Origin: Acidimicrobiaceae bacterium
GTDB lineage: Bacteria > Actinomycetota > Acidimicrobiia > Acidimicrobiales > Aldehydirespiratoraceae
Direction: 5' to 3'
Length of the DNA stretch: 64,000 bases
Assembly (NCBI GenBank): GCA_026706815.1
Contig: JAPOYA010000013.1
Location: 20,378-84,377, forward strand
Positions 11,964 through 61,915 of the stretch are shown piece by piece. Positions within the stretch are counted from its first letter, which is position 1; each line of letters starts with the position of its first letter. The notes beneath the pieces are model-generated. The model was given only the letters and a program-made list of their open reading frames with translations. It ran no database searches and had not been told where the DNA came from. Made by a program: the position numbers and the translations under genes.

Positions 11964-14252
11964 TCAGATCATCGAAGGCTGTGCAGTTTCGGGCTCGGCG
12001 GACGTCAGACCTTCCAGGACGCGGGTGGGCGTCAGGGGGAAGGAGTCGAACCACACGCCTGTGGCGTCGTGCAGCGCTGCGGCAATCGCGGGCGCATAGG
12101 GGATGAACGGCATCTCAGCCATGCCCCGGACGCCGAACGGACCGCGGGGGTCGGGGATCTCGAGGAGCACAGATCGCACCTGCTCTGGAATGTCCGATAT
12201 CCCGGGTATCAGGTAACCGCTGAATCTCGGGTTGAGCACTCGCCCATCGACGACCTGAAGGTCTTCTGACAATGCGTAGCCGTGAGCCTGGATGACAGCG
12301 CCCTCGACTTGCCCGACTACCAGAGCACGGTTGACGATACAACCCACATCGACGGCGCACACGACATCGTGGACCACGATGTGACCGGTTTCGACGTCGA
12401 CCGACAAGTCTACTGCTTCGGCCACGTAGCCATATGCGAAGTTCGGCGTCGTGGGCAGCAGGCCCTCGGGGTCGAGAGCCTCGGTCGGAGGAGGAACGTA
12501 GCGAAACTCTCCCATCGCGGGGCGGTCCCCGTTGAGCCACGATTTCGCCGCCTCCTCCGCGGCGCCCAAGATGGCATTGCCGGTCATCCAGGTAAGTCGA
12601 GACGCCGAGGCCGAGCCTGAGTCTCCGCTGCTCGCGGTGTCGGAGAATCTCGCCTCGATCGCTTCAAACGGCACTCCCGTCGCCTCTGCGGCCATCTGCA
12701 AGAAAGCGGTGTGAGCGCCCTGCCCGACATCGGCGCCGGCCAGATACAACTCCGCAGACATGGGCTCATCGACCCCGCCGTCCAACGAATCGTCCTCTCC
12801 TCGCAGGACGATCATTGCCTCGCTCCGTTCTGGGAAACCGAACGAGAAACCGACATTCTTATAGGCGCAGGCAAAACCGCGGCCGCGCCTGACCGCTTTC
12901 GTCGAAGGCGCCAATGAGGCGAACGCCGACACGGCCCGAGGTTCCGGCAGCGGCTCGGACCAGTCGGCCTCAGTCGCACAGGCCTCAACGACTTCTCCGA
13001 GGCTCACTCCAGCGGGCATCTCGGATCCGGTTATCCCGAGCGATCCATCCGCCAAAATGTTGCGACGCCGGATCTCGACGGGATCAATGCCGGTCAGCGC
13101 AGCAAGCTTGTTCATCTGCATCTCGGCCACGAACGTGCCCTGCGGCCCGCCGAATCCCCTGAACGCTCCGCCCGGCGGCGCGTTCGTGTAAACGGCCCTT
13201 GAGTCAATACGAGCGTTCGGGATCACATAAGCGCCCGACACGCTGAGATGGAGGTTTCCGAGCACCTTGTTGGAGGTGTAGTTGTAGGCCCCCGCATCGA
13301 GATAGGCCTCTGCTTCCACTCCTAGAATCCGACCGTCGGCATCCGCCGCCCAGCGGGTGTGGACCCTGCCCCGATGGCGTTTGTGATGCCCGACAATCGA
13401 CTCCTCCCGGCTCCATTCGCAGCGCACAGGCCGAGTTGTTCCGGCTTCCTGCAACCGCAGCGCAACCAGCCCCATCACCACTTGCAGGCTCATGTCCTCT
13501 TTGCCGCCGAAAGCCCCTCCGATGGCCCTGTAGACGATGCGCACCTGTTCAACCGGGAGATCGAGCGCGTGAGCCACTTGTTCTCGATCTTCGTGGGTCC
13601 ACTGCCCCGCGGTCTCCACGGTGATCCTGCCTTCGGCGTCAATGTAGGAAACAGCCGCCTCGGTCTGAAGATAGGCGTGCTCCTGGTACGGGTACTCGTA
13701 GGTGTGTTCGACAATATGAGCGGCGTCAGCGAAAGCTGCAACGGTGTCACCCTTGCGCACCTTCAGATGGGTGTAGGAATTGGTGTCGGCGCCGTCTTCG
13801 GGGTGTACCAGAGTCGCGTCCGGTTCCAGCGCAGCGTCGAGGTCGGCTATCACATCCAGGGGTTCCCACTCGGTGACAATGAGTTGGGCCGCAGCCAGCG
13901 CAATTTCGGCTGTGTCCGCCACAACCACCGCCAAATGGTCGGCTTCCCAGCGAGAGACGTCGGATGCCACGGCTGCGCGGCCCGAGCTGCGCGGCCCAAC
14001 CAGCACAGGCTGATCAAACTTGGTCAGCCCGTACTCGTTCACTGGTACGTCCGCTGCGGTCAATACCAGATGCACACCGGGCATCGCCACAGCAGCGCCA
14101 GTGTCGAGAGAAGTGATGCGCGCATGGACTTCGTCTGTGAACACAACCTTGGCGTGCAACATCTCAGCATCCGCGATGTCGCCCGCGTAGATCGCCTCTC
14201 CGGTGACCTTCCCGTAGGCGTCGGGTTTTGCAGCCGGTTCACCGAAACTCAC
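11964..14252 (-). CDS. xanthine dehydrogenase/aldehyde oxidase family molybdopterin-binding large subunit
   Basis: 762 aa with hammerhead and MoCo-binding domains (GGAFGGKEDMS, GFGGPQG). A 4-nt overlap joins it to the FAD/FeS subunit gene. Confidence 0.85.
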   Translation of the reverse strand: MSFGEPAAKPDAYGKVTGEAIYAGDIADAEMLHAKVVFTDEVHARITSLDTGAAVAMPGVHLVLTAADVPVNEYGLTKFDQPVLVGPRSSGRAAVASDVSRWEADHLAVVVADTAEIALAAAQLIVTEWEPLDVIADLDAALEPDATLVHPEDGADTNSYTHLKVRKGDTVAAFADAAHIVEHTYEYPYQEHAYLQTEAAVSYIDAEGRITVETAGQWTHEDREQVAHALDLPVEQVRIVYRAIGGAFGGKEDMSLQVVMGLVALRLQEAGTTRPVRCEWSREESIVGHHKRHRGRVHTRWAADADGRILGVEAEAYLDAGAYNYTSNKVLGNLHLSVSGAYVIPNARIDSRAVYTNAPPGGAFRGFGGPQGTFVAEMQMNKLAALTGIDPVEIRRRNILADGSLGITGSEMPAGVSLGEVVEACATEADWSEPLPEPRAVSAFASLAPSTKAVRRGRGFACAYKNVGFSFGFPERSEAMIVLRGEDDSLDGGVDEPMSAELYLAGADVGQGAHTAFLQMAAEATGVPFEAIEARFSDTASSGDSGSASASRLTWMTGNAILGAAEEAAKSWLNGDRPAMGEFRYVPPPTEALDPEGLLPTTPNFAYGYVAEAVDLSVDVETGHIVVHDVVCAVDVGCIVNRALVVGQVEGAVIQAHGYALSEDLQVVDGRVLNPRFSGYLIPGISDIPEQVRSVLLEIPDPRGPFGVRGMAEMPFIPYAPAIAAALHDATGVWFDSFPLTPTRVLEGLTSAEPETAQPSMI

Positions 14253-15685
14253 GAATCGGCCCCCGCGCCGGTTGTTGCGTCAAACGCAGCCTCTATGGCG
14301 TAGTAGCCGGTGCAGCGGCAGAGATTGCCCGAGAGTCCGTGCTTGAGCGTCTCTTCGTCGGCTTCGGGGTCACTGGCCTGCAATGCAGCTCCTGCCATCA
14401 AAAACCCCGGGATGCAATAGCCGCACTGCACTGCGGCACAATCAATGAAGCGCTGTTGAAGTGGGTGGAGGACTCCGTCGCGGGCAAGTCCCTCGATTGT
14501 CGTAATCCGCGACTTGTGCGCTCTGCCCGCCGGCACCAGACAACTGAGAACTGCCGCGCCGTCCAGGTGGATGGTGCAGGCACCGCATTCTCCTTCTGCG
14601 CAACCTTCTTTGGTGCCAGTCAACTCGGTCGCTTCACGAATCCAGTCGAGCAGCGGTGCTGCGGTCCAAGGCGCGTCGACCGCCATGCCGTTGATCGTTG
14701 TGGAGATCATGTCACCCGGACCGAACTCGGCGACCACGGCGTCCGGGGCAACGCATGGGCCTCCCAATGTCGGCACAGACTCCGGCCATGCGGCTTGATG
14801 CTCACCCGCTGCTATCGCTTCAAGACATCGGCGCACCATCACCGCGACAACCCGGCTGCGGTAAGCGGCGGGGGCTCGCAGGTCGTCGATCGGCGCAACG
14901 CCGGCTCTGGCAAGCTCACCTGCCGCTTCAATGCTGGTTTCGTCCAGGCACCCCCCGATCAGCAGCTCTTCGGCTTCGGCGGCTCGCACGATGACGGGTG
15001 CCACGCTGCCCAAGGCGATCGCGATGTCGGAAACGGCCCCGTGATCGTCGAAGTCGCAGCGAACCGCGAGATGCACCACCGAGATGGCTTGAGCCCCCCG
15101 CAGGCCCAACTTCAAGAACATCGAGCGGCTGTCGGCGGCGCGGACCGGGAACGAAATGTCAGTCACGAGCTCGTCCGGCTCGAGGACAGTCTCGCGCACG
15201 CCCACGAAAAAGTCCGAGAGATCGACGGTGCGGTTGCCCGCCGCGGAGGTGAGCGTTATGTCTGCCTCCAGTGCCCTCAATGCGCTGATCGTGTCGTTTG
15301 CCGGGCTGGCGGTGACCACATTCCCGGCCACCGTCGCACGGTTCCGCAACGCCGGAGCGCCCACTTCTAGACACGCCTGCGCCAGCGCTAGGCCGTGTTC
15401 AACAACGGTCGGGCTGTCGGTGCACTGACTATGCGTCACCAATGGCCCGATGTGTACTCGGCCGTCGCTCACTGAAATCTCGTCGAGTCCGGCGATTCGG
15501 GTGATATCGATCAGCCGCTTTACCTCCCCGCTGATCCGCCGATCCATCTCGATCATGAGATCAGTGCCGCCCGCCACAACCCGTCCGCCGTCGGCGAGCA
15601 GCGCCACTGCTTCTGCAACAGTGCCGGGCGCGGCGTATGCGGTTGGCCTGATTGCCGGGAGTTGGACATCATGCACGTCGGGCAA
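14249..15685 (-). CDS. fused FAD-binding (CoxM-like) + [2Fe-2S] (CoxS-like) subunit of a molybdenum hydroxylase
   Basis: The N-terminal FAD domain carries VVAGGTDLM. The C-terminal part carries CAEGECGACT, CGYCIPG and CRCTGY. Domain order is FAD then FeS. Confidence 0.85.
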   Translation of the reverse strand: MPDVHDVQLPAIRPTAYAAPGTVAEAVALLADGGRVVAGGTDLMIEMDRRISGEVKRLIDITRIAGLDEISVSDGRVHIGPLVTHSQCTDSPTVVEHGLALAQACLEVGAPALRNRATVAGNVVTASPANDTISALRALEADITLTSAAGNRTVDLSDFFVGVRETVLEPDELVTDISFPVRAADSRSMFLKLGLRGAQAISVVHLAVRCDFDDHGAVSDIAIALGSVAPVIVRAAEAEELLIGGCLDETSIEAAGELARAGVAPIDDLRAPAAYRSRVVAVMVRRCLEAIAAGEHQAAWPESVPTLGGPCVAPDAVVAEFGPGDMISTTINGMAVDAPWTAAPLLDWIREATELTGTKEGCAEGECGACTIHLDGAAVLSCLVPAGRAHKSRITTIEGLARDGVLHPLQQRFIDCAAVQCGYCIPGFLMAGAALQASDPEADEETLKHGLSGNLCRCTGYYAIEAAFDATTGAGADS

Positions 15686-31012: not shown

Positions 31013-31908
31013 GAGGCCAGGCTCCACGAGTAGACGCGGGAGGGTTCGGGTTCGAAGATCTCTGCATGGCTCACGTCGGGGAGTTGGGCTATGGCCCGGA
31101 ACTCCGACGACATCGCAACCCAATCGTCGGTTTCGGCGACGACGGCTGGCTTGCACGCAATCGGATCCCGGAGGATCGCAAAGCCGTTCTTCACGCCGAT
31201 CGCGAACGTGTAGAAGCCGTCGAGGTCGGTCAGGGCGCTGGTGAGGGCTCCGTCGATGGTGTCGCCGGTTCGCAGTTTCCAGGCGAGGTAGCCCGCAGCG
31301 ACTTCGGAATCGTTCTCCGTCTGGAACGACTCGCCTCGCTGAGCCAACCGTTCTCGAAGTTGGTTGTGATTCGACAGCGAGCCGTTGTGGACCAGGCAGG
31401 TGTCGGCCCCGGTCACGAAGGGGTGCGATCCGTTGGTGGTCACGGCGGATTCGGTCGCCATGCGAGTGTGCGCCATGGCGTGTGTGCCTCGTCGTGACGC
31501 AAGGTCGTAGCGACTCGCGACCAGATCGGGGTCACCGACCGATTTGTAGAGCTCGATCTGTTGTCCATAGCTCAACACGTCGATTCCTGTGACGTTGTCG
31601 ATGAGCCATTGGCGTGCAGCACGGCCATCGCCGGTTGTCTCGAACACGGCGTGGTCGTGGATCTCCCGCAGAGTGACTTCAGCTCCGAGTTCGGCTTCTA
31701 ACTCGTCGGCTGTCTGGCGACGGTTGATCGAATCGTCGGTCACCAGCACTGTGATCCTGGTTCGTTCGCTGTCGCCCTGGTCGTAGACGGCGAACCCGGC
31801 GCTGTCGGGGCCCCGCTCGCGCATCTCATGCAGCATGACCGCGGTGAGCCTCCCCAGTTCCTCGTGGTAGATGGGAGTTTTCAGGAACAAACCGACGATC
31901 CCGCACAT
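31009..31908 (-). CDS. class II (Ntn) glutamine amidotransferase (MgsA/GltB domain-1 type)
   Basis: I set the start at ATG 31908 so that the protein begins MCGIVGLF, giving the obligatory N-terminal Cys. The ORF-track start at 31956 adds 16 implausible residues. Confidence 0.8.
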   Translation of the reverse strand: MCGIVGLFLKTPIYHEELGRLTAVMLHEMRERGPDSAGFAVYDQGDSERTRITVLVTDDSINRRQTADELEAELGAEVTLREIHDHAVFETTGDGRAARQWLIDNVTGIDVLSYGQQIELYKSVGDPDLVASRYDLASRRGTHAMAHTRMATESAVTTNGSHPFVTGADTCLVHNGSLSNHNQLRERLAQRGESFQTENDSEVAAGYLAWKLRTGDTIDGALTSALTDLDGFYTFAIGVKNGFAILRDPIACKPAVVAETDDWVAMSSEFRAIAQLPDVSHAEIFEPEPSRVYSWSLAS

Positions 31909-31927
31909 GCTTGAGAACCTTAGCCGC

Positions 31928-31982
31928 ATCTCTTGACAACGGTGAAGAGATTTCACCTACAGTAGAGGTTTCCTCAGGTGAA
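31928..31982. promoter_or_regulatory. candidate divergent promoter/operator: overlapping inverted repeats around a TTGACA box
   Basis: ATCTCTT-N10-AAGAGAT spans 31928-31951 and encloses TTGACA at 31933-31938. GGTGAA-N5-TTCACC spans 31941-31957, and a third GGTGAA lies at 31977-31982. All sit in the 110-bp gap between the mgsA-like and gmaS-like starts. Confidence 0.4.
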
Positions 31983-32018
31983 TCGCGTGCAGGTTCAGAT
32001 CAGACGAAGGAGTTGCCG

Positions 32019-33374
32019 ATGGGCGCATACGAAGAGATCAAAGCACGGGTCGAAAACGACGGTGTCGAGTTCGTTTACGCAATGTTCGTGGAGATGCACG
32101 GCAAGCCGTGCGCCAAACTCGTCCCGGTTGAAGCGCTCGAGACGGTGATGAACGAGGGAGCCGGATTCGCAGGTTTTGCAGCTGGTCCTATCGGCCAGGA
32201 CCCCTCCAGCCCCGACATCCTGGCTATTCCCGATCCCGCGTCGTACACGCAGCTGCCATGGCAACCCAATGTCGCCGCCTTGCAATGCGACCCGACTGTT
32301 GAAGGGGAACTCTGGCCCTACGCACCACGCGTGATCCTTCGACGAGCCCTCGACGATCTCGCGTCGCGCGGTCTGGTGTTGAACGTCGGGGTCGAAGCGG
32401 AGTATTCGTTGGTCAACAAGAACCCGGACGGGTCGATCGTGGTCGCGGACGAGCGTGACGTGGACGAACAGCCCTGCTACGACGCCAAGGGTCTCACCCG
32501 CATGCTCCCCCATCTCACCGAGGTCTCACACAACCTCAACGCCATGGGCTGGGGCAACTACGCCAACGACCACGAGGACGCCAACGGCCAGTTCGAACAG
32601 AACTGGCAGTATTCCGACGCCCTCACCACCGCTGATCGGCTGGTGCTGTTCCGGTTGATGATCCACACAATGGCCGCGCGCGACGGCCGCTATGCAACTT
32701 TCATGCCCAAGCCCTTCGCCGACAAGACCGGCAACGGGCTCCACGCTCATTCCAGCCTCTGGTCACTCGAGGGCGAACCGCTCTTCGTCGGAGGAGACGA
32801 CGACCCCAAGGGCTTGGGGTTGAGCGAGCTGGCATATCAGTTCGCGGCCGGATTGATCGAGCATGCCCCCTCACTAGTCGCGATTCTTTGCCCCATTGTC
32901 AACTCTTACAAGCGCATGGGGGTTGGTGCTCCGACGTCGGGCGCGACCTGGGCGCCCGCCTATGCGGCGTATGGGGGCAACAACCGCACACAGATGATCC
33001 GCGTACCCGAGCCGGACCGGCTGGAGCTCCGTCTCGCCGATGGAGCAGCGAACCCGTATCTCATGTTCGCAGCGATGCTCGCCTGCGGGCTCGACGGCAT
33101 CGACCGAGGCCTCGACCCCGGTCAACCGAACGAGGACAACCTGTTCAAGCTGTCCGCTGAGGAAATCGCCGAACGAGGGATCGTCACCCTGCCGCCGACT
33201 CTGCTGCACGCCGCAGAGAACCTGGCAGCCTGCGATGTGCTTGAGAAGGGTCTCGGGATGACCCCCGACGGCTCCTATCGGGACTATTTTGCGAAGACCA
33301 AAAGGGCCGAGTTCATGGCCCACCATCATCAGGTCACCCAAGCTGAGATCGACCAATATCTCACCCTGTTCTGA
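32019..33374 (+). CDS. type III glutamine-synthetase-family ligase (GmaS / gamma-glutamyl-amine synthetase type)
   Basis: I set the start at ATG 32019, 7 nt after GAAGGAG (MGAYEEIKARVENDGVEFVYAMF...). The protein has a GS catalytic-domain pattern and sits divergent from the mgsABC-like genes, as in N-methylglutamate-pathway clusters. Confidence 0.75.
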   Translation: MGAYEEIKARVENDGVEFVYAMFVEMHGKPCAKLVPVEALETVMNEGAGFAGFAAGPIGQDPSSPDILAIPDPASYTQLPWQPNVAALQCDPTVEGELWPYAPRVILRRALDDLASRGLVLNVGVEAEYSLVNKNPDGSIVVADERDVDEQPCYDAKGLTRMLPHLTEVSHNLNAMGWGNYANDHEDANGQFEQNWQYSDALTTADRLVLFRLMIHTMAARDGRYATFMPKPFADKTGNGLHAHSSLWSLEGEPLFVGGDDDPKGLGLSELAYQFAAGLIEHAPSLVAILCPIVNSYKRMGVGAPTSGATWAPAYAAYGGNNRTQMIRVPEPDRLELRLADGAANPYLMFAAMLACGLDGIDRGLDPGQPNEDNLFKLSAEEIAERGIVTLPPTLLHAAENLAACDVLEKGLGMTPDGSYRDYFAKTKRAEFMAHHHQVTQAEIDQYLTLF

Positions 33375-33407
33375 GAATCGACCCCACCACAGAGCCATCT
33401 GAAAACA

Positions 33408-34070
33408 ATGCCGAACGACCGAAGCGAATCAGAAGCGCCGCGGACCGTCAACGACAGCCGGACAGGCCGATTGACAACCGATGAGGTCTGCGAGAGCGTT
33501 GGTCGGCGAGTACGTGAACTCCGGGTAGGCATGGGGTTGACCATGGAGCAGTTCGCGGACGCTGCCGGGCTGTCGATCGGGATGCTCTCCAAGGTCGAGC
33601 ATGGGCAGACCTCGCCCAGTTTCAGCACACTCATCAGCCTGGCCGACGCCGCCGAGGTTCCCTTCACAGCCTTCTTCCGAGGACTGGACGAGGAACGCGA
33701 CGCCGTGGTCGTCCCTGCGGGACAGGGAATGGAGATCATCCACGAAGGCGCCGGCCCGGGCAGGGTGTACCGCGACCTCGGATCGCTGCGAGGTCCTACC
33801 CGTGAGATCGAGTCGCTGTACGTCACGATCACCGAACCCGACGAGGTCTTCCCGTTGTTCCAACACGGCGGCGTCGAGTTCATATACATCCTTGAAGGCT
33901 GCGTCGAATACGGCTACGGCACCAAGCGGTATGTGCTCAACACGGGCGACTCGATGCAGTTCCGGGGCGAGGTAACACACGGCCCCACCGCGCTGATCAA
34001 ACTCCCGTTGCGCTTCCTGTCGTTGAAAGTCACCTATCCCCCCGACTCGAACTCCGGCTCCAACGGTTGA
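33408..34070 (+). CDS. XRE-family HTH regulator with C-terminal cupin domain
   Basis: The HTH is LTMEQFADAAGLSIGMLSKVEHGQTSPS, followed by a cupin-like C-terminal half. The gene starts 33 nt after the gmaS-like stop. Confidence 0.8.
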   Translation: MPNDRSESEAPRTVNDSRTGRLTTDEVCESVGRRVRELRVGMGLTMEQFADAAGLSIGMLSKVEHGQTSPSFSTLISLADAAEVPFTAFFRGLDEERDAVVVPAGQGMEIIHEGAGPGRVYRDLGSLRGPTREIESLYVTITEPDEVFPLFQHGGVEFIYILEGCVEYGYGTKRYVLNTGDSMQFRGEVTHGPTALIKLPLRFLSLKVTYPPDSNSGSNG

Positions 34071-45488: not shown

Positions 45489-46457
45489 CTAGTCGACCTC
45501 GAGGACGACTTTGCCGAACGTTTCGTTGGATTCGATCAGTTCGTGGGCCCGGTCGGCTTCAGCGATGGGGATCACTTCGTCGATGACGGGACCGATACCA
45601 CCCGATTCGATGAGCGGCCAAACCCGTTCACGAAGCGCCGACATGACGACCCTCTTCTCATGCACCGGGCGGGCTCGCAACGTGGAGCCGATCACCCGCA
45701 GTCGTTTCATCATCAACAACCCGAGCGAGATTTCTGCCGTGGCGCCACTCATCAAGCCGATCAGCACGAGCCGACCTCCTATGGCGAGACTTCCGATGTT
45801 CTCGTTGAGATAGCCGGCGCCCACCGGATCGAGGATTACGTCGAAGCCATTGCCCTCGGTCCAGCTCTCGACGTGATCGACGAAGCTTCCTGAATGGCGA
45901 TTGCTGCCTCCGGACGCTCCCAGAGTCACACACCGCTCGACCTTGTCATCGGCGCCGGCCGTTACGAAAACAGGGTTGCCGAAAGCTCGGCACAACTGAA
46001 TGGCGGCGGTGCCCACACCACTGGCGCCGGCATGCAACAGGACACGTTCCCCGGGAGCCAGAGCCGCTTCAATATGGAGATTGAGATAGGCGGTGGCAAA
46101 GACTTCGGGAAGCGCGGCGGCCTCAACAAACGACAGACCCGCGGGGACCGGGACAACCTGCGGTGCCGGGACCGCGACTTCCTCGGCGTAACCTCCTCCG
46201 GCAAGCAGGGCACAAACTTCATCCCCTGTCTCAAAGCCAGTCACATCTTCGGCGATTTCGGACACCACGCCCGCACACTCCAAGCCCATGATCGGACTGG
46301 CGCCGGGCGGCGGTGGATAAAACCCCGCTCGCTGTGCCAAATCAGCCCGATTCACCGCGCTGGCCCTGACCTCGATGCGGATCTCCCCGTCCCCCAAAGA
46401 CGGACTCGGGGTGTCGCTCCACACCAGTTGGCCACCTCGGACCTCAATCGCCTTCAT
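45489..46457 (-). CDS. NAD(P)H:quinone oxidoreductase (zeta-crystallin/PIG3-type MDR)
   Basis: 322 aa with GASGVGTAAIQL nucleotide-binding and MDR-family N-terminal patterns. Confidence 0.85.
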   Translation of the reverse strand: MKAIEVRGGQLVWSDTPSPSLGDGEIRIEVRASAVNRADLAQRAGFYPPPPGASPIMGLECAGVVSEIAEDVTGFETGDEVCALLAGGGYAEEVAVPAPQVVPVPAGLSFVEAAALPEVFATAYLNLHIEAALAPGERVLLHAGASGVGTAAIQLCRAFGNPVFVTAGADDKVERCVTLGASGGSNRHSGSFVDHVESWTEGNGFDVILDPVGAGYLNENIGSLAIGGRLVLIGLMSGATAEISLGLLMMKRLRVIGSTLRARPVHEKRVVMSALRERVWPLIESGGIGPVIDEVIPIAEADRAHELIESNETFGKVVLEVD

Positions 46458-46761: not shown

Positions 46762-47919
46762 TCAGCGGTGGGCGGGGGCCATGTAGAACCAGAACGGGAA
46801 CGGCGCGTCCTGCTCCTTGAGCTGCGCGCGGGCCGCCATCATGGTCTTGCCGGCTTCGGTCTCGGTATAGAACCAAGACTCGACCGCACGCCCGCCAGGC
46901 GCCGGACCGGTCGCCAACTCGAGAGCTGCTTCGGTGTAGTAGGCCCGGATGTCGTGACAGACCGCGATCGTGATCTTGCCCGGGAGCGGAGTTTCTTCCC
47001 ATGACGCACCTTCGGCCCATTTATGCAGGACGTCGAGCGCGTCTGCAACGGTGTCGGCGTCGATGGCTCGGCCCACCGAGGTGACGCCCCGAGCCTCTAC
47101 CGCTCGGTCATAGGCCGCTCGCAGACCCTGTGCTTCATCGACCGCTGGGGGAAGCGCAGCATCGAAGCGCGGTGGAATCGAGCAGGCCAAGGGTGTTTCC
47201 TCGGACTCGATGACCAGCGGATAAGTCTCAAATGCGGGTTCGTTCGAATCGAGCAGAGCCAGAGCGCGGTTCAAGACGTCGAGTTGCAACTCAACGTCGT
47301 CAGGACGACCCAGCGGACGACCCAGCGGGAACTCGCAGTACAGCGTGCGCGGGGGCATCATCCGTTCCGCGACCTCTTTCATCGAGGCGAGCACGATCGT
47401 CGACAGACCTTCAGCTTCAAAGACGTGGGCGAGCGCACTCACGGTGCGCGTGCACTCCGGTCAAACCGGTGTCAGCACCACCACGTCGACCGCATCGGCC
47501 AGCATCTCCCTCGCGCATGCCGGGCCGGTGTCGAGACGCAGCTCGCTGACCGTCTCGGGCTGGTTGCCGGCGAAGGCGAAATGGCGGGGGGCGACGTCAC
47601 CGATCACACCCTGAGCGGCCAGTTCCTCCAGTCGGTCGATCGGGTACACGACGTTGATGTCGATCTGGAAGCCCGAGTGGTCGAAGTTGGGACTCCAGTG
47701 GCCCAGCACGATGTTGCGGTCAGCACGGTCAAGCGACCGGAACCCGGTGTCAGCCGGGGCGAAGCGATCCTGGTCGGGCCGGTGCAGCGCTGCCGAAGTC
47801 ACAATCGCAACACGAGCCTCGGCAAGTGGCTTGTCGAGTGGGGTGAACGCCGGAGCGTCGAACGTCGGCACTGGTTTCTGCGCCGCGTAGGAGCGCATTA
47901 CAGCATCTCCATCAGTCAT
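46762..47919 (-). CDS. PrdB/GrdB-family selenoprotein (in-frame UGA = Sec at 47461-47463)
   Basis: ORF-track entries 47461..47955(-) and 46762..47442(-) share one frame. Only a TGA and six sense codons separate them. Read-through gives ...DVVVLTPV-U-PECTRTVSALAHVFEAEGLSTIVL, which matches the Sec region of PrdB/GrdB (..AVLLT..UGTC.R....E..GIPT..). I place the start at ATG 47919, 9 nt after GGAGAGGAGG. Confidence 0.75.
47427..47458 (-). promoter_or_regulatory. SECIS-like hairpin immediately 3' of the in-frame UGA
   Basis: The mRNA after UGA reads CCGGAGUGCACGCGCACCGUGAGUGCGCUCGCCC. A 6-bp upper stem pairs GCGCAC (+12..+17) with GUGCGC (+23..+28) around the apical loop CGUGA. An interrupted lower stem spans +3..+11 and +29..+34. 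Confidence 0.55.
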
Positions 47920-48252
47920 GATGTCAATCCTCCTCTCCGACCGGCTCGTACCCAAGCCCCGGTCGGATCATTAGCCAGTTGAACACGCACAACGTAGTTT
48001 GAGATCTTCAGCCAAACAACGCACGGCGAGCTCGCCTCAACCCGCCTAGACGAAATGCTCGCCACCCAGCGAGCCATATCCCGCCGCTTCCAGCTTTCTC
48101 ACTGACTCGAGCCGGCGATGCTGATACCTGTCAGCGTACGGTTCACTTCCCTCGCTCCCCTCGCCGCCCGCGCGCCACGAACCGCACGACGATCCCAGTC
48201 CGGCCACTCGTGGGCCAAGCAAGGCGAAACTTGCGCGGGGGTAGGATGAAGC

Positions 48253-49617
48253 ATGTCGCTACACCCCAAGCCCCGTGATTCGGCGGTTTCCCGCACTGCT
48301 GATCCGCTTGAGCTTTCTGCGCGTGTGATCGCGTCCGGGGTGGCTGACGAGCCGACGAACCGGGTGACCAACACGCTCACCGAGATCGATGACCGAATCG
48401 CGATCGTGGAGTCTTTCTCGCACATGGTTGCCTTCTCGACCGACGCCGGTCTGGTGTGTTTCGACGCGAGCGGTGCTATGAGCGGTGCGGCTGTCGCTGA
48501 AGCTTTGCGTGGCTGGTCCAAAGAGCCAGTCGATTCGCTCGTCTACACGCATGGGCACATGGATCACGTCGGCGGCAGCGGGGCCGTCGCCGCCGATGCC
48601 GAGACTCACGGGCATCGTCCGCCACGCGTCGTCGGCCACGCCAACGTTCCTGTCCGTCTGCAGCGCTACCAAGACACGAACGGCTACAACGTGGCGATCA
48701 ACGCCCGGCAGTTCGGCGGTGTGTCGAGACGACTGAACCTGGGAAGTCTGGGAGCGGGTGTTGACCGCTTCGTGGCGCCCGACACTCTTTGGCCCGACAT
48801 CACCTACGACGACCATCTCACCGTGTCCGTCGCCGGAACGGACTTTGTTCTGCACCACGACAAGGGTGAGACCGACGATCACACCTGGGCGTGGGTGCCG
48901 GAGCACCGTGCTCTGTGCGTCGGCGATTTCGTGACCTGGGTCTTCCCCAACGCGGGAAACCCGCAGAAGGTCCAGAGATACCCGCTGGAGTGGGCCAGAG
49001 CACTCCGGCGCATGCAGGCATACGAGGCCGAACTCCTGCTTCCTGCGCATGGTCTCCCGGTCCGAGGGCAAGCAGAAGTCAACCTGATCCTAGGCGACCT
49101 CGCCGCCGCACTCGAGGGTCTGGTCGACGCCACGCTTGAGTTGATGAACGCCGGGGAATCGCTCGACACCATCCTCGGAACCGTCAAGGCATCCGAAGAC
49201 CTGCTGTCCAAAGCGTGGCTCCAACCCGTCTACGACGAACCCGAGTTCGTTGTCCGCAACATCTGGCGCCTCTACGGCGGATGGTGGGACCAGAACCCCG
49301 CGAAGCTCAAGGCGGCGAGCGAGGCCGCGTACGCAGCCGAGATCGTTGGGCTTGTGGGTGGCGAAGAACAGGTCGTCAGCCGTGCCCAGGAACTCGCCGA
49401 TGCAGGGGACTTCCGCTTGGCGTGCGAACTCATTGAACTGGCCACGAACGCCGCACCGGAGTCCATAGCGGCACACGGCGCCCGAGCGGAGATCTACATG
49501 GCCCGCCGACACGCCGAGCGATCTCTGATGGCCAAGGGCATCTACGCGGCCGCCTCCCGAGAGTCCACCGCCATCATCGACAGCGCGCTCGCCGACAAGC
49601 CCGACCAAACACTATGA
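48253..49617 (+). CDS. MBL-fold hydrolase of the alkyl/aryl-sulfatase type (MBL + dimerisation domain, no SCP2 tail)
   Basis: Has THGHMDHVGG (HxHxDH). The C-terminal helical region (NIWRLYGGWWDQNPAKL...) resembles the alkyl-sulfatase dimerisation domain. TAGGAT lies 5 nt upstream of the ATG. Confidence 0.7.
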   Translation: MSLHPKPRDSAVSRTADPLELSARVIASGVADEPTNRVTNTLTEIDDRIAIVESFSHMVAFSTDAGLVCFDASGAMSGAAVAEALRGWSKEPVDSLVYTHGHMDHVGGSGAVAADAETHGHRPPRVVGHANVPVRLQRYQDTNGYNVAINARQFGGVSRRLNLGSLGAGVDRFVAPDTLWPDITYDDHLTVSVAGTDFVLHHDKGETDDHTWAWVPEHRALCVGDFVTWVFPNAGNPQKVQRYPLEWARALRRMQAYEAELLLPAHGLPVRGQAEVNLILGDLAAALEGLVDATLELMNAGESLDTILGTVKASEDLLSKAWLQPVYDEPEFVVRNIWRLYGGWWDQNPAKLKAASEAAYAAEIVGLVGGEEQVVSRAQELADAGDFRLACELIELATNAAPESIAAHGARAEIYMARRHAERSLMAKGIYAAASRESTAIIDSALADKPDQTL

Positions 49618-52946: not shown

Positions 52947-53162
52947 ATGCGAATCTCTGAACGGGGCCAGATTACGATTCCCAAGGGCTTGCGTGATCGT
53001 TTCGGCCTCAATCACAACGTTGAGGTGGACCTCACCCCCACCGAGGGTGGGCTTCTCATCCATAAGCGGTCCGTTGCACAACATCCCATCGAAAGTGTGT
53101 ACGCGATCCTTGACAGCAGCGAGAGCACCGATGACTACATTGAGGAGATCCGGGGAAGGTGA
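52947..53162 (+). CDS. vapB: AbrB/SpoVT-type antitoxin (VapB)
   Basis: MRISERGQITIPKGLRDRFGL is a swapped-hairpin AbrB motif. A GTGA overlap joins it to the PIN gene. Confidence 0.75.
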   Translation: MRISERGQITIPKGLRDRFGLNHNVEVDLTPTEGGLLIHKRSVAQHPIESVYAILDSSESTDDYIEEIRGR

Positions 53163-53554
53163 TCACCGCAGTCGACACCAGTGTCCTCCTAGACGTCTTC
53201 TGCGGCGACGAACAGCACGGTCTTGGCTCTCGGGAACGCCTGGAAGAGGCATACGACGCGGGCGCGATTGTCATCTGCGATGTCGTGCTCGCCGAGCTCG
53301 TCCCCGCGTTCGACGACCGAACCCTCTTGGAGGAGGCGCTGCGGAAGATCAACGCGTCGCTGTCGCCCATCACCACAGACATCGCCCACGAGGCGGGCTT
53401 GCGCTGGCTGCGATACCGCCGAGCCGGTGGGCCGCGCACTCGAATCATCACCGATTTCCTGATCGGAGCCCATGCCCTCGGTGCCGCCGACGCCTTTCTG
53501 ACGCGCGACCGAGGTTTCTACCACACCTATTTCCCCGAACTCACCACCGCCTGA
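53159..53554 (+). CDS. vapC: PIN-domain ribonuclease toxin (VapC)
   Basis: Acidic PIN residues are present (AVDTSVLLD..., ...VLAEL..., ...TDFLIGAHA..., ...LTRD). Confidence 0.8.
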   Translation: MITAVDTSVLLDVFCGDEQHGLGSRERLEEAYDAGAIVICDVVLAELVPAFDDRTLLEEALRKINASLSPITTDIAHEAGLRWLRYRRAGGPRTRIITDFLIGAHALGAADAFLTRDRGFYHTYFPELTTA

Positions 53555-53734: not shown

Positions 53735-55240
53735 ATGCGCCGGGGCGGCCGGGTCGCGAACCGGAACCACCAGCCGAGGCTCGCCACCACCCCAGCGCCG
53801 GTCGGCGGCGCGTTCCAACCTCTGCCGGACCGAGATCGCGACGCGCTCATCGACCACGCCTTCACCATCCTCGAGCAGGTCGGGATGGCGGGCGCGCCCT
53901 CCCGCTACGCGGCTCGTCTCAAGGATCTGGGAGCGATCGAGCGCGACGACGGTCGGCTGCTCCTACCGCGCCTGATGGTGGAAGCGGCGCTCGAGCGGGC
54001 GCCCTCCAGAGTGTCGCTGCCGGGCTTTTGTGAGGACCGCGGCATCACCATCGGCCGAGAGGGTGTTCACATCGGCACCGGAGGCGCAGCGGTGCTCACC
54101 CTCGAAGGCGCGACCGGCGCCTACCGCGACTCAACGCTCGCTGACCTCTGGACGATGATGCGAGTGCTCGACGAGTGCCCGAACATCCACTACGGTCTGC
54201 GTCCCCTCGTCGCCCGAGACGTGGTCGGCGAGCTCGCCCTAGACGTCAACACCGCGTTCGCGAACACTGCGGCCTCGTCCAAGCCGACCGGGATCAGCTT
54301 CACTTCGGCGGCCAGCGTCGGTCCGGTCGTCGACCTGTTCGACGTCGCGCTCGGCGGCGAGGGGCGATTTGCGCGCCAGCCCTTCTCGATGGCTGTCGTG
54401 GTCCACGTGGTCCCGCCTCTTCGCTTCTCGCCCGAGGGTTGCGAAATCATGGCTTCGGCCATCGAACGGGGCATGATCGTGCAAACCTGCTCGGCGGGCC
54501 AGGCCGGGGCCACCAGCCCTCCGTCGCTCGCGGGAAGCCTGGCCCAGGGAGTAGCCGAAGTCTTGGCCGGCGTCGTGTTGGCCGACTCGATCAAGCCCGG
54601 TCATCCCTGCATCCATGCGTTCATGCCGTTCATCTCCGATCTCCGCAGCGGTGCGATGACAGGCGGGAGCGGGGAGGCCGCCGTGGCCAGCGCTGCCGCG
54701 GCCCAGCTCATGGCGACCTTGGAGATCCCCCACGCCGTGTCGGCCGGGATTACCGAGTCGAAAACAGCCGACAGCCAGGCCGGATACGAGAAGGGTTACA
54801 CGGTGGCCCTCGCCGCCCACGCGGGAGCCGACATGGTGCAGCTATCGGTGGGGATGCTGGGCTCGATCATGGTCGCGAGCCCTGAGATCCTCGTCATCGA
54901 CAACGACATGTGCGGTGCCATCCTGCGATCCGTGCGAGGGGTGGAGGTCGAGCCTGACTACCTCAACATCGACATCATCAACGAAGCGGTAACCGGGGAG
55001 GGCCACTACCTGGGGCACACCCAGACCCTTGAACTGATGCGCAGCGAGTACGTCTACCCGCAACTGGGCGATCGGGCGTCGGTCGACGACTGGGTCGCAA
55101 AGGGAGCGCCCAGCCTCTGGAGTCGGGCCCGGGATCGGGTCGACGAGATCGCCGCCGCGGGCCGACCGGGCCATCTTTCTGTTGAGGCCGAATCGGCGAT
55201 CCGGTCGCGGTTCCCCATTCTTCTGCCGGAAATTAGATGA
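53735..55240 (+). CDS. MttB-superfamily methyltransferase, non-pyrrolysine type
   Basis: 501 aa with an RRGGR N-terminus and an MttB-like TIM-barrel pattern. There is no internal TAG. An ATGA overlap joins it to the downstream dehydrogenase. Confidence 0.75.
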   Translation: MRRGGRVANRNHQPRLATTPAPVGGAFQPLPDRDRDALIDHAFTILEQVGMAGAPSRYAARLKDLGAIERDDGRLLLPRLMVEAALERAPSRVSLPGFCEDRGITIGREGVHIGTGGAAVLTLEGATGAYRDSTLADLWTMMRVLDECPNIHYGLRPLVARDVVGELALDVNTAFANTAASSKPTGISFTSAASVGPVVDLFDVALGGEGRFARQPFSMAVVVHVVPPLRFSPEGCEIMASAIERGMIVQTCSAGQAGATSPPSLAGSLAQGVAEVLAGVVLADSIKPGHPCIHAFMPFISDLRSGAMTGGSGEAAVASAAAAQLMATLEIPHAVSAGITESKTADSQAGYEKGYTVALAAHAGADMVQLSVGMLGSIMVASPEILVIDNDMCGAILRSVRGVEVEPDYLNIDIINEAVTGEGHYLGHTQTLELMRSEYVYPQLGDRASVDDWVAKGAPSLWSRARDRVDEIAAAGRPGHLSVEAESAIRSRFPILLPEIR

Positions 55241-57717
55241 CAGATTCGGAATCGGACTGTGTTGAGATCGTGGTCATCGGCGGCGGCGCGGTCGGCGCCT
55301 CCATTCTGGCCCATCTCGCCGATGCCGGACGCACCGACGCGGTTCTGCTCGAAAAGCACGAGCTGACAGCCGGCTCGACTTGGCACGCAGCCGGAAACGT
55401 GCCGACATGCTCCAACAGTTGGCTCGGGCAGCGAGCCGGCAACTACGCGTGGCGTCTGTACTCCGAGCTCGCGGCTGATCCCGACAATCCGATCACCTAC
55501 CGCCACACCCGGGCTTTCTGGCCGGGCCATACCTCATCGCGAATCGACCACTTCCATCATCTCATGGGCATAGCCACCGGCCTCGGCTTCGACCTCCACT
55601 TGGTGTCGCCCGCCGAAATGGAAGAAATGCACCCCTTCTGGCACGACGACGGGACTGTGATCGCAGGCCTGCTCGATCCCTACGAGGGTGACATAGACCC
55701 GAGCGCACTCACCCAGAGCCTGGTCCGCAGGGCCAGAACCCTCGGGGCTCAAATCCACCGCAACTGCCGGGTGATCGACATCGAGGCCCTTGCCGGGCTC
55801 AGTGGTGCCGAGTGGCGGGTACACGTCGAGCGCAACGGAGACCGCGCCCGGATCGACTGCGACACAGTCGTCAACGCCGCAGGTTTCTATGGCGGACAGA
55901 TCAGTGCCATGGCCGGCGTTGACGCGCCTTTGGCGGTGGTTGAGCACCAGTACGTCGTGTCCGCGCCAGTGCCGCAACTGGAGTCCGTAACCGAGAGCTT
56001 CCCGTTGGTGCGCGACCCGGAGTTGATGTTCTACCTGCGCCGGGAGCAGAACCGCCTCCTGTTCGGGAACTACGGCCATGAGGGCCGTACCGTTTGGGAG
56101 GAGGGTCTGCCCGACGCGTTCGACTCCTCGCTGTTCCACAACTCGACCGAGGACGTTGCCGAGGCCGCGCAGCGGGCGATCGCCCACGTACCGATTCTGG
56201 GGGAGGTCGGTGTCGCCGAGTTCGTCAACGGCCCGATCGCCTACTCCCCCGACGCGAATCCGCTGGTCGGGCCCGCGCCCGGCGTACCGAACTTCTATCA
56301 GGCTGTCGGTGTGCAGATCGGCATCACCCACGCGGCAGCCGTGGGCAAGGTGCTGACCGAGATGATCACCGGCGGCGACACCGAGTGGGACGTGTGGCCC
56401 TGGGATCCTCGTCGGTTCGGCGACTGGGCCATGAATGGCAGCGGGCGTCACACCTACGCGAACACCCGGGTCCGCGAACTCTACGAGCTGCAGTACGCGG
56501 AGCCGTTCCCGCATCGGATGTGGACCTCGGCTCGTCCCGTCAACCAGAGTCCGCTCTACGGCACATTGGCCGCGAAGGGGGCTCGGTTCGGACAGGTCGC
56601 GGGCTGGGAGCGGGCCTTCTGGTTCGGCGCCGAACCATACGACCATGCCGCTCTCAGCTACCGCGACGAACAGTGGCACGAGGCCGTGGCCGACGAGTGC
56701 CTGGCCGTGCGCGACCATGTCGGCGTCATGGACCACTGCGGCTTCACACGGTTCGAGGTCAGCGGTCGAGGAGCCGTTGCTTTCTTGGACCGCATGTTCT
56801 GCACCAGACTTCCGGAAGTGGGCCGAGTACGACTCGCCTACATGCTGCGACCCAACGGCACCGTGTGGAGTGAGGCGACCATCGGCCGCTTCGCGGAGGA
56901 CCGCTTCATCCTGTTGGGGCCCACCGCAGCTCGTGAACGCGACTTCGATTGGCTCCAGAGCCATCTGCCCGCCGACGGCAGTGTTGCGTTCCGCCACGGC
57001 GCCGAACGGACATCCGCGTTGATGGTGATGGGGCCGCGATCCCGGGAGCTGTTGTCGCGCCTGTCCGACGCGGACGTGTCCCGCGAGGCCGCACCACCGA
57101 TGTCGCTGCGCGAGATCGACGTGGCCGGGGTCAACGCGACGGCGCTGCGGGTCAGTTTCGTGGGTGAACTGGGCTGGGAACTGCACGTAGACGACGCCGA
57201 CGTTGCCGACCTCTACACCGAGCTGCATTCCGCAGGCTCGGATCTAGGCATACGAGACTTCGGCTCCTACGCCCTCAACGCGATGCGAATCGAGAAGGCC
57301 TACCACGGCTGGGGCACCGAGTTCGGGGTGGAGTACACACCCTTCGAGGCTGGTTTGGAACGGTTCGTCGACTTGGACAAGCCTGACTTCGTCGGCAATG
57401 AAGCGGTGCGGGCAGCCTCCTGCGGGCCACACCATTGGTGCTATGGCATATGGACCATCGACCTCGACGGCCTCAACGACTTGCCGGGCGACCCCGCACC
57501 GTCAGCCCCGATCCGGGTCGATGGCAGGCTTGCCGGTTTCGTCACATCGGCGAGCATGGGCTTCCGCACCGGCCAGCGGGTCTGCCTCGGCTACATCGAA
57601 AGCCGTTTCGCCGCTACCAGTGTCAGCTTCACGGTCAACGTGTTCGGCACCGAATGCCCAGCGAAGCGCCACTTCGGCGCTGTGTACGATCCCGCCAGCG
57701 AACGGCCCCGGAGTTGA
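55237..57717 (+). CDS. dimethylglycine/sarcosine-dehydrogenase-type enzyme (FAD oxidoreductase fused to GcvT-like folate-binding domain)
   Basis: 826 aa with an N-terminal VVIGGGAVGASIL dinucleotide fold and C-terminal aminomethyltransferase-like domains. Confidence 0.85.
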   Translation: MTDSESDCVEIVVIGGGAVGASILAHLADAGRTDAVLLEKHELTAGSTWHAAGNVPTCSNSWLGQRAGNYAWRLYSELAADPDNPITYRHTRAFWPGHTSSRIDHFHHLMGIATGLGFDLHLVSPAEMEEMHPFWHDDGTVIAGLLDPYEGDIDPSALTQSLVRRARTLGAQIHRNCRVIDIEALAGLSGAEWRVHVERNGDRARIDCDTVVNAAGFYGGQISAMAGVDAPLAVVEHQYVVSAPVPQLESVTESFPLVRDPELMFYLRREQNRLLFGNYGHEGRTVWEEGLPDAFDSSLFHNSTEDVAEAAQRAIAHVPILGEVGVAEFVNGPIAYSPDANPLVGPAPGVPNFYQAVGVQIGITHAAAVGKVLTEMITGGDTEWDVWPWDPRRFGDWAMNGSGRHTYANTRVRELYELQYAEPFPHRMWTSARPVNQSPLYGTLAAKGARFGQVAGWERAFWFGAEPYDHAALSYRDEQWHEAVADECLAVRDHVGVMDHCGFTRFEVSGRGAVAFLDRMFCTRLPEVGRVRLAYMLRPNGTVWSEATIGRFAEDRFILLGPTAARERDFDWLQSHLPADGSVAFRHGAERTSALMVMGPRSRELLSRLSDADVSREAAPPMSLREIDVAGVNATALRVSFVGELGWELHVDDADVADLYTELHSAGSDLGIRDFGSYALNAMRIEKAYHGWGTEFGVEYTPFEAGLERFVDLDKPDFVGNEAVRAASCGPHHWCYGIWTIDLDGLNDLPGDPAPSAPIRVDGRLAGFVTSASMGFRTGQRVCLGYIESRFAATSVSFTVNVFGTECPAKRHFGAVYDPASERPRS

Positions 57718-60403: not shown

Positions 60404-61222
60404 CTAGAACGGGCGGTCGCCGACAACCGTGACTCGCTCCATCAGTCGGTGCTCGGGCAGGAAATCAGCGGACGCTGCGTGCTGCACACACCGGTTGTCC
60501 CACATCACGAACGTGTCGACGTTCCAACGCACGCGGCACTGCACCGAGGGATTCCGGATCGCCCACTCAAGATGCCGCAGAATCTCACGGCTCTCCTCTT
60601 CAGAGAGCCCATCAATATGGGACGTGAAACCGATATTGGTGTAGATCCCTCGGGCGCCTGTGACCGGGTGCGTTCTTATGACCGGATGGCGTTGCGGCGG
60701 ATACTGTGTCCGGATCCTCTCGGTTTCAGAAGGCTCAACCCGATCCTCAAAAACCCGAGAGTAGTCGTGGATCGCATACAGGTCATCCACCCTTTGCCTC
60801 CAATCGTCGGAGAGACGCCGGTAAGCCGCCGTGGCATCGGCAAAACAGGTGTCCCCGCCAACCGGGGGAACAATCCGCCCGCGCAGGATCGAGCCCATCG
60901 ACGGCTCGGCCCGCCAAGTCACATCGCTGTGCCAACCCGCGGCAACAAAGGTCTTGCCGCTTGCTCCGCCGGCTTCCAGCACGACCACTTCGGGGTAGTC
61001 CTCGTCGTTGTCGGTGAACGGGTGGACCTCGAGGTCCCCGAACAACCGTCCGAAAGCAATGTGCTCCTCGGTGGTGATGTGCTGATCGCGCAGGACCAGC
61101 ACCTTGTAGTCGAGCCAGGCCTTCTTGAGCTTGTCGAGGGTGACGCCATCGACGTCGGCCATGTCTACTCCTGATATTTCAGCTCCCAGCGTTGCGGTGA
61201 TTGGCGAGACCTCCATTCCCAT
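60404..61222 (-). CDS. TauD/TfdA-family Fe(II)/2-oxoglutarate dioxygenase
   Basis: 272 aa with the HSD (WHSDVTW) facial-triad pattern and the family-typical N-terminus. Its start abuts the stop of the upstream lipoprotein gene. Confidence 0.8.
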   Translation of the reverse strand: MGMEVSPITATLGAEISGVDMADVDGVTLDKLKKAWLDYKVLVLRDQHITTEEHIAFGRLFGDLEVHPFTDNDEDYPEVVVLEAGGASGKTFVAAGWHSDVTWRAEPSMGSILRGRIVPPVGGDTCFADATAAYRRLSDDWRQRVDDLYAIHDYSRVFEDRVEPSETERIRTQYPPQRHPVIRTHPVTGARGIYTNIGFTSHIDGLSEEESREILRHLEWAIRNPSVQCRVRWNVDTFVMWDNRCVQHAASADFLPEHRLMERVTVVGDRPF

Positions 61223-61819
61223 TCAGCTCCAACTCTCCGGGTCCACTGGGTCACCTCCGAGCACGATGTCGTTATAGGCGGGATCGGGCGTGACCGAAAC
61301 ATCTGGCCCCGCCCAAATGTTCGCTGCGGTTGCCACCTCGGCTCGAGCGCCTCCTGTGCCCCACTGCACGTACGCCAGGATGTTGTCGGGCGACCCGAAG
61401 TCGCTGTTGTTCGCGTACAGCGCCGCTTCGCCGCCGGCCGAGTTCAGTCCTCCGACCGCCGAAGCAGGTATCTCAACTGTCGCCCCCGCGTCGATGACGG
61501 CACCGGTCACCTCCGTTCCGAGGTCGGTGTATTGCGGGAACTGGCAGATGTAGATGCCGTTGACATTGGCTTCGGTGTTGCCGCGGTTCTGAACCCGCAC
61601 GAAACCGCCGTCTCCGAACTGGACCCCGGTGATCACCAGATCGCCGAGGGCCACGGCGTCCTGGGGGATCGGCACAGTGGTCGACGTCGTGGATGTGGTC
61701 GGGGCGGTCTCTGTTGGCTGAGACTCAACGCTTTCGTCGGAGTCATCGCCACCGCAGCCCGCCAGCAACAGCGCAAAGGTCACCAGACACGTTGTCATCC
61801 CAAGGCGAATGGACCGCAT
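61223..61819 (-). CDS. lipoprotein with lamin-tail-domain-like beta-sandwich
   Basis: The ATG at 61819 lies 6 nt after GGGAGG. The lipobox is LLAGCG. The VITGVQFGDGGFVRVQNRGNTEANVNG pattern resembles LTD domains, but the assignment is tentative. Confidence 0.5.
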   Translation of the reverse strand: MRSIRLGMTTCLVTFALLLAGCGGDDSDESVESQPTETAPTTSTTSTTVPIPQDAVALGDLVITGVQFGDGGFVRVQNRGNTEANVNGIYICQFPQYTDLGTEVTGAVIDAGATVEIPASAVGGLNSAGGEAALYANNSDFGSPDNILAYVQWGTGGARAEVATAANIWAGPDVSVTPDPAYNDIVLGGDPVDPESWS

Positions 61820-61915
61820 GAGACCTCCCTCTTCGTCCTCGACACTAGAGACCGCGCGCACAAGCCCCAACAAGCTGAGACCTCAATCCACGCATGCTTG
61901 AGAATACACCACGCT

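Follow-up and report, generated by a model that had tools for sequence, protein, structure and literature searches.

Among the closest described relatives of the gene reported here are the selenocysteine (Sec)-bearing catalytic subunits PrdB, known from Clostridium sticklandii and C. difficile (model TIGR04483), and GrdB/GrdF/GrdH (PF07355, TIGR01918). Marine surveys have recorded such genes in high abundance. 'Proline reductase PrdB', characterised by a UxxC motif, ranked third in abundance among the selenoprotein families of the Sargasso Sea survey, with 42 genes (Zhang, Fomenko & Gladyshev 2005, PMC1088965), and the Global Ocean Sampling (GOS) survey counted 235 Sec and 110 Cys forms of PrdB (Zhang & Gladyshev 2008, PMC2398784). 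A later survey assigned 6.4% of marine selenoprotein genes to proline reductase (PMC9402790). We analysed a 64,000-nucleotide stretch of an Acidimicrobiaceae bacterium (contig JAPOYA010000013.1, positions 20,378 to 84,377), called the window below. The sequence comparisons indicate with high confidence that 46762-47919 on its minus strand is a single gene for a stand-alone, PrdB/GrdB-like selenoprotein of 385 residues, in which a UGA codon is recoded in company with a conserved hairpin.

The open reading frame (ORF) layout and the translation agree with the original prediction, which had noticed that ORFs 47461..47955 and 46762..47442 share one minus-strand frame. Between them lie only the TGA (47463-47461) and six sense codons, which encode PECTRT, and the next codon is GTG 47442-47440. 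The start of the downstream ORF 46762..47442 is nothing more than the first GTG past the TGA. This GTG (47440-47442) is an internal conserved Val codon of the motif TRTV, has no ribosome-binding site (RBS) and lies inside the hairpin loop. Read-through from ATG 47919, which a Shine-Dalgarno-like sequence precedes, gives 385 codons with a stop codon at position 153, so that the earlier placing of Sec at residue 153 of 385 was correct in the translation. The sequence around the TGA is ...DAVDVVVLTPV-*-PECTRTVSALAHVFEAEGL..., and the resulting motif is LTPV-U-P-E-C-TRT with U153. Four assemblies made independently from different samples (Logan SRR10996932; ENA ERZ23496111, ERZ23499944 and ERZ27276918) contain the identical pair of 152-aa and 226-aa ORFs, and the TGA is therefore not an assembly error. 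TGA is the commonest ordinary stop of long ORFs in the window, most of which end in it, so the genetic code is not reassigned. The features of the gene are as follows.

46762..47919, minus strand: complete read-through coding sequence (CDS), 385 codons plus stop 46762-46764, predicted Sec at codon 153; from the translation, collinear with Cys homologues of 380–400 aa
47928..47938, minus strand: Shine-Dalgarno-like, purine-rich GGAGAGGAGGA, 8 nt 5' of ATG 47917-47919; read from the sequence
47461..47463, minus strand: in-frame UGA, predicted Sec codon U153, next base C (UGA-C context); from its conservation and the Cys/Gly column
47452..47454, minus strand: codon of Cys156, the U-x-x-C partner and putative resolving cysteine, invariant in 59/59 sequences

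The conservation of the UGA was followed in homologues at increasing distance. The first homology search returned more than 100 close relatives (70–93% identity), all of them 226-aa C-terminal fragments, which shows the same split in those relatives. It also returned a few uninterrupted homologues, approximately 50% identical and 381–401 aa long, whose residue at the TGA column is Cys. A profile search brought in about 85 more full-length homologues from Woeseiaceae/Pseudomonadota, Acidimicrobiales and Solirubrobacterales. The original prediction had proposed an alignment of this column. In our alignment of 59 sequences, 58 of them uninterrupted homologues, the column held Cys in 49 and Gly in 10, and Cys156 was the same in every sequence. 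A scan of GTDB with one genome per species yielded at least 586 relatives, and the column was examined in the best 80. These 80 were all Acidimicrobiia-type metagenome-assembled genomes (MAGs) of Ca. Aldehydirespiratoraceae, Ilumatobacteraceae and others. Each of the 80 species representatives had TGA at the Sec column, at protein identities of 59–91%, and no frameshifts or extra stops occurred in the TGA-carrying relatives down to 59% identity. When metagenomes were scanned with a Cys homologue as seed, 72 of the 78 loci obtained carried TGA, in several subfamilies including the LTGT-U-P[LM]CPRT branch. Protein-level conservation persisted through the 232 codons 3' of the TGA in the genome and metagenome relatives.

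The Gly-type homologues (P0161-P0166 and P0190-P0196; locus L093, 5332-6510) have the motif LTPL-G-PMCTRTVC, and the codon in L093 is GGG. They retain Cys156 and another Cys five residues further on, which suggests that this branch uses another Cys pair or has lost the activity. One metagenome contig of 4.6 kb (L157, Ga0115012_10016042) carries two Sec-type motifs, LTPV-U-PACTRT and LTPV-U-PLCTRT, and a hairpin for each of them, which suggests tandem paralogues. Two Cys-type paralogues, P0175 and P0185, lie about 7 kb apart in a Solirubrobacterales locus (L092).

A stem-loop follows the UGA within the CDS. With the U of the UGA as position 1, its helix is formed by 15-20/26-31 around the loop CGUGA (21-25), and two more pairs are 11-35 and 12-34. 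The core at 47433-47449 measures 17 nt and begins 11 nt 3' of the UGA, and it falls within the codons for C-T-R-T-V-S-A-L. The original prediction had placed the apical loop at +18..+22 from the UGA. This is the same hairpin as the conserved one, and its covariation, its frozen wobble bases and its loss in Cys forms, given below the coordinates, bear that proposal out.

47429..47453, minus strand: hairpin resembling a selenocysteine insertion sequence (SECIS), within the CDS; from pair counts, covariation, frozen wobbles and absence in Cys/Gly homologues
47452-47453 with 47429-47430, minus strand: lower 2 bp of the hairpin
47444-47449 with 47433-47438, minus strand: 6-bp core stem
47439-47443, minus strand: apical loop CGUGA, which holds GTG 47440-47442 of the downstream ORF

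Among 63 distinct genome sequences, 99.8% of the cells in the helix were paired. Pair 18-28 was UA in 32, CG in 30 and UG in one of them, and pair 17-29 switched between GC and GU. The observed covariation score was reached by none of 500 column shuffles, and the pairing collapsed when the partner strand was slid by 1–3 nt. The two bases of pair 18-28, which stand ten nucleotides apart, are the third position of an Arg codon and the first position of an Ala/Thr/Val codon, so their covariation is not explicable by selection on the protein. The genome and metagenome sequences were then pooled into 120 unique Sec-type and 13 Cys/Gly-type sequences. Every one of the 8 bp was paired in at least 98% (98–100%) of the Sec-type sequences. 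Here pair 18-28 was UA in 68 and CG in 49, with one mismatch, and further compensatory changes were found at 15-31 (GC to CG) and 19-27 (AU to GC). In the 13 Cys/Gly-type homologues, four of the eight pairs (15-31, 16-30, 18-28 and 19-27) were just 23–38% paired, and Cys forms of the same subfamily fold weakly (−2.7 to −6.3 kcal/mol). Third-base entropy was zero at the conserved four- or six-fold degenerate codons +4, +6 and +7. None of 105 comparable degenerate codons elsewhere in the gene fell below 0.1 bit, and their mean was 1.53.

The minimal SECIS of E. coli has a size of 17 nt, a spacing of 11 nt from the UGA and GU in the loop. The window hairpin is like the E. coli fdhF-type element in being a stem-loop within the CDS directly 3' of the UGA, with a 17-nt core at 11 nt and a G-U in the apical loop. 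It differs in having an unrelated sequence, no evident bulged U and the loop CGUGA (GGUCG or similar in other branches). The downstream hairpin is thus a predicted SECIS-type element. Codon 161 (AGT, 47437-47439) encodes the Ser after TRTV, which is AGT in 66 of 74 Sec forms from Acidimicrobiia. A single base change would turn it into TGT, the Cys codon that many homologues have here (motif RTVC). Because bases 2 and 3 of AGT are partners in the SECIS stem, the protein sequence at this codon appears to be constrained by the RNA structure.

The profile-library searches were run with U replaced by C. Positions 12-220 of the 238-position NCBIfam PrdB model TIGR04483 matched residues 17-225, across the TGA, with 133.6 bits (E 7e-39), far under its equivalog cutoff of 300 bits. 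The C-terminal halves of the GrdF/GrdH/GrdB and TIGR01918 models matched at approximately 45–50 bits, likewise under cutoff (for TIGR01918, 45 bits against 65.45). Pfam GRDB (PF07355) scored 29.7 bits, above its gathering threshold of 22, over residues 10-150 only. This match ends at model position 345 of 347, just short of the Sec column, and PF07355 is precomputed on most full-length homologues. Membership of the PrdB/GrdB family across both halves had been claimed before and agrees with TIGR04483. A PF07355 match spanning both halves had also been proposed as a check; it was not obtained, and the span is provided by TIGR04483. Residues 226-385 matched no Pfam or NCBIfam model. The domains are placed as follows.

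47245..47871, minus strand: PrdB/GrdB-like alpha/beta domain, residues 17-225, with the U-x-x-C motif; from TIGR04483, PF07355 and the AlphaFold2 model of a homologue
46765..47223, minus strand: family-specific all-helical C-terminal domain, residues 233-385; no library match, helices in the AlphaFold2 model, beyond the 238-position PrdB model

The structure model is an AlphaFold2 prediction of the Cys homologue P0045, which is 51–52% identical to the window protein (pLDDT 91.2, pTM 0.90). It predicts an alpha/beta domain of alternating strands and helices to about residue 241, continuous across the junction, and an all-helical domain at 264-389, with the CxxC between strand 150-154 and helix 161-173. 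A profile search of the PDB sequences gave no significant match. Foldseek against the PDB gave nothing meaningful, and the best hit, photocobilin 8j2y (E 6e-3, TM 0.25), was taken as noise. The fold has no representative among solved structures. In an exhaustive HMMER search with residues 233-385, the C-terminal domain was found in just 204 clusters among 1.84 billion cluster representatives. The lengths of the 150 clusters listed fit full-length members or fragments, apart from the long outliers P0252, P0309 and P0321. Of these three, only P0252 matches the domain in one long stretch, and it has no Pfam match. The helical domain is, these three aside, confined essentially to this PrdB-like family.

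Compared with PrdB, the window protein shares the alpha/beta domain over nearly the full length of the model, the UxxC motif at the corresponding place (U153-P-E-C156) and a Sec that would be encoded by UGA. It differs from PrdB in its low model score, in its length (385 aa against a 238-position model, with the added helical domain) and in its surroundings, as no prdA, prdC, prdD or prdE adjoins the gene and the hosts are Acidimicrobiia MAGs instead of Stickland-fermenting clostridia. Compared with GrdB/GrdF/GrdH, it passes the PF07355 threshold and aligns with the C-terminal half of the GrdB-type model (about 200-425), including the Sec region. However, it lacks the N-terminal residues of that type (about 200), stays under the TIGR01918 cutoff, has UxxC and no UxxCxxC of the GrdB type, and has no grdA, grdC, grdD or grdE neighbours.

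The marine 'PrdB' group is the same subfamily: it has UxxC, pfam07355 and high abundance, and the helical domain is present in AACY01584242. This entry of the 2005 supplement (VVLLTPVuPLCTRTV...) is 43% identical to the window protein over 171 aa (E 9e-43, residues 146-314), including the C-terminal domain. Another, AACY01802489 (LTGTuPMCPRTVC...), is a Sec form that fits the motif of the Pseudomonadota-type branch. Unlike the window gene, which is a complete copy on an Acidimicrobiia contig with its genomic context, the marine entries are short read-derived fragments filed as D-proline reductase, and what is accessible of these surveys makes no comment on the extra domain, the missing PrdA or the aerobic hosts. 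Selenoproteome papers have catalogued the family since 2005, so all that is new here is a further, mis-annotated member of a known subfamily. A literature search on the function of PrdB-like and GrdB-like orphans found nothing relevant.

As the comparative data suggest, the UGA at codon 153 would be decoded as Sec in translation. The 17-nt stem-loop 11 nt 3' of it presumably recruits SelB-GTP-Sec-tRNASec to the ribosome. By its sequence, the N-terminal alpha/beta domain is homologous to the Sec-bearing catalytic subunits PrdB and GrdB/F/H. By analogy with these, Sec153, in the strand-loop-helix motif U-P-x-C, would most likely be the nucleophile that attacks an electrophilic centre of the substrate. 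Cys156 would then resolve the adduct, and the resulting selenenylsulfide would be re-reduced by a cellular dithiol. Sec153 and Cys156 are thus most likely used for reductive, thiol-dependent chemistry. The family may further be speculated to be a self-contained, PrdA-independent selenoenzyme of Acidimicrobiia and marine Gammaproteobacteria, in which the C-terminal domain replaces the role of the pyruvoyl protein PrdA/GrdE and a non-amino-acid substrate (a CoA-activated or sulfated catabolic intermediate) is reductively cleaved. We hold this proposal to be doubtful. If it is true, the selenoprotein-B fold would carry out a new class of reaction beyond anaerobic fermentation.

Several points weigh against the reading as a Sec-decoding, catalytically active gene. 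Searches of the window and of 1.68 Mb of related loci turned up neither selA, selB or selD nor a gene for tRNA-Sec. An Rfam scan of the window at gathering thresholds showed no tRNA-Sec or relevant RNA family, and ARAGORN reported no tRNA-Sec in the window and 88 loci. A tblastn search of the window and related loci with E. coli SelA, SelB and SelD as queries had CysN/CysC in locus L087 as its sole match, a weak negative. The 67-nt fold was no more stable than its shuffles (z = 0.62), and the minimum free energy (MFE) fold of the window sequence prefers another register than the conserved hairpin. It is thus sequence comparison, and not thermodynamics, that supports the hairpin. The 10 Gly homologues (a real GGG codon was checked in L093) indicate that the fold can be retained without that nucleophile. 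The catalytic mechanism is drawn wholly from the PrdB/GrdB analogy, and a partner gene may lie elsewhere in the genome. On the side of Sec decoding, the cultured Ilumatobacter coccineus and I. nonamiensis have SelD, SelA and SelB, with 15 and 10 known selenoproteins, respectively (Peng et al. 2016, PMC5029168 Tables S1/S2). This is support at the level of the lineage and not of this particular genome.

These points bear on three other explanations. The failure to find the machinery in the DNA examined would suit a UGA that is read through without Sec, for example by near-cognate suppression with Cys-tRNA or Trp-tRNA, with the hairpin as a generic stimulator of read-through or in another RNA role. 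The UGA-C context is leaky, which also speaks for it. We nevertheless think this very improbable. The UGA aligns with the catalytic Cys, and PrdB and GrdB, the founding members, are proven selenoproteins at the same motif. The hairpin has the size, spacing and loop GU of the minimal SECIS of E. coli, a geometry taken from established knowledge, and relatives from the same family-level lineage possess SelA/SelB/SelD and 10–15 selenoproteins. With suppression of low efficiency there would moreover be no explanation why at least 150 lineages are fixed for TGA, with TGC and TGT one base away. Even less credible is a real stop at the TGA, be it between two small proteins of 152 aa and 226 aa, in a pseudogene or through an error of assembly, although all gene callers and RefSeq annotate two ORFs, the second as 'hypothetical protein'. 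This explanation is at odds with the identical sequence in four independent assemblies, with a TGA kept across species down to 59% identity free of frameshifts and extra stops, and with the existence of uninterrupted single-chain homologues. The supposed GTG start is a conserved internal Val codon without an RBS in the hairpin loop, and the fold predicted for the homologue runs as one continuous alpha/beta domain over the junction.

A further alternative accepts the Sec and differs in function. The gene could encode a true B subunit of D-proline or glycine/betaine reductase, with the pyruvoyl PrdA/GrdE-type partner and the other components of the complex elsewhere in the genome. PrdB is indeed the best curated model match (TIGR04483, E 7e-39), Joint Genome Institute (JGI) pipelines name homologues 'D-proline reductase (dithiol) PrdB', and the published selenoproteome surveys class the family as proline reductase. 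We regard this assignment as improbable. The scores miss both cutoffs (133.6 vs 300 bits for PrdB and 45 vs 65.45 for TIGR01918), and a C-terminal domain of approximately 160 residues extends past the PrdB model. PrdA, GrdA, GrdC and GrdE are absent from the window locus and do not recur in 176 related loci, and the carriers are MAGs of Acidimicrobiia and marine Gammaproteobacteria, not Stickland fermenters. Because the PrdB and TIGR01918 cutoffs failed, an extra C-terminal domain is present and no PrdA/Grd protein is nearby, the protein is not the B subunit of a Stickland D-proline/glycine reductase complex and belongs to a distinct stand-alone, two-domain clade. The original prediction had likewise judged a Stickland reductase unlikely. 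The single 385-residue selenoprotein gene at 46762-47919 is the reading that we retain below.

This selenoprotein gene is monocistronic in the window. It is divergent from a metallo-beta-lactamase (MBL)-fold alkylsulfatase-like gene at 48253..49617, and a zinc alcohol dehydrogenase (Zn-ADH)/quinone-oxidoreductase-type gene at 45489..46457 comes after it. These are the two neighbours named in the original prediction, which had also found no grdA/grdC/prdA-type partner adjacent. The survey of neighbours extends the latter result. Pfam families of the prdA/grd type were absent within ±10 kb of the window gene and in 11 other annotated loci, and PrdA, GrdA, GrdC and GrdE were never among the neighbours in the 176 related loci. 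Flanking genes differ even among 92%-identical orthologues. Even the most frequent neighbour family is limited to at most 17% of the 176 loci, and none is obligate. The commonest were short-chain dehydrogenase/reductase (SDR, 30), acyl-CoA ligase (29), enoyl-CoA hydratase (19), TetR (17), acyl-CoA dehydrogenase (14) and sulfatase (12). In related loci, this type of gene often sits among acyl-CoA-type catabolic genes, and the neighbourhood themes of Cys-type loci are similar to those of Sec-type loci. Co-occurrence with sulfatase and GcvH was considered as a sign of functional partnership and is not regarded as established, being a loose enrichment over the 176 loci.

Three Cys-type homologues stand in apparent operons. 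One is with EthD and a GcvH-like lipoyl protein (L094, 6001-7628), another with a glyoxalase, a 453-aa protein, an esterase and two sulfatases (L096, 5447-12672), and the third with a phosphoenolpyruvate (PEP)-utilising Rph-like protein, an acyl-CoA ligase and a CaiB-type CoA-transferase (L089, 5015-12288). These partners are possible functional leads, and none is conserved family-wide.

The split of the gene has consequences for annotation. The 152-aa upstream fragment obtains a weak GRDB match only, and the 226-aa downstream fragment is filed as 'hypothetical protein' (e.g. P0211, RefSeq NZ_OZ244049.1, Ilumatobacter sp.). Gene callers and RefSeq split the selenoprotein gene in hundreds of Acidimicrobiia genomes, a systematic mis-annotation in this lineage. 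The signature of UGA plus hairpin could be used to repair the split gene calls; relatives of the gene occur in at least 586 GTDB species representatives. 'Proline reductase' accounts for approximately 6% of the marine selenoprotein genes in published surveys. For this subfamily, at least, the name D-proline reductase does not hold, because its architecture is different, PrdA is not nearby and the hosts are non-fermentative. A selenoprotein that is among the most abundant in the environment is thereby left without an assigned substrate. The cultured Ilumatobacter species are Sec-decoding relatives suited to functional study, if the gene is present there.

Other parts of the window were also inspected. 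Same-frame TGA junctions at 31848-34070 (+), 60404-61882 (−) and 10752-14279 (−) were considered as further selenoproteins and rejected as adjacent genes or off-frame ORFs. Judged by eye from the translations only, a glutamine-synthetase-like gene and a helix-turn-helix (HTH)/cupin regulator abut across the TGA in 31848-34070 (+), a molybdopterin-oxidoreductase-like large subunit and an ATP-binding cassette (ABC) permease in 10752-14279 (−), and a secreted protein and a TauD-like dioxygenase in 60404-61882 (−). Junction inspection and a de novo scan made no second selenoprotein gene apparent in the window.

An MttB-family methyltransferase gene of the non-pyrrolysine (non-Pyl) type lies at 53735-55240 (+) and is called as 451 or 501 aa depending on the assembly. 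It overlaps by 4 nt the gene of an 826-aa DAO/FAO_M/GCV_T dehydrogenase at 55237-57717 (+). The pair looks like a glycine-betaine/dimethylglycine demethylation module, which is not conserved beside the selenoprotein gene in relatives. A PIN-domain toxin gene with a small upstream partner ORF is found at 53144-53554 (+) and is likely a toxin-antitoxin pair. PhdYeFM/PIN pairs and insertion sequence (IS) elements were seen near the selenoprotein gene in related loci, and the region is therefore variable.

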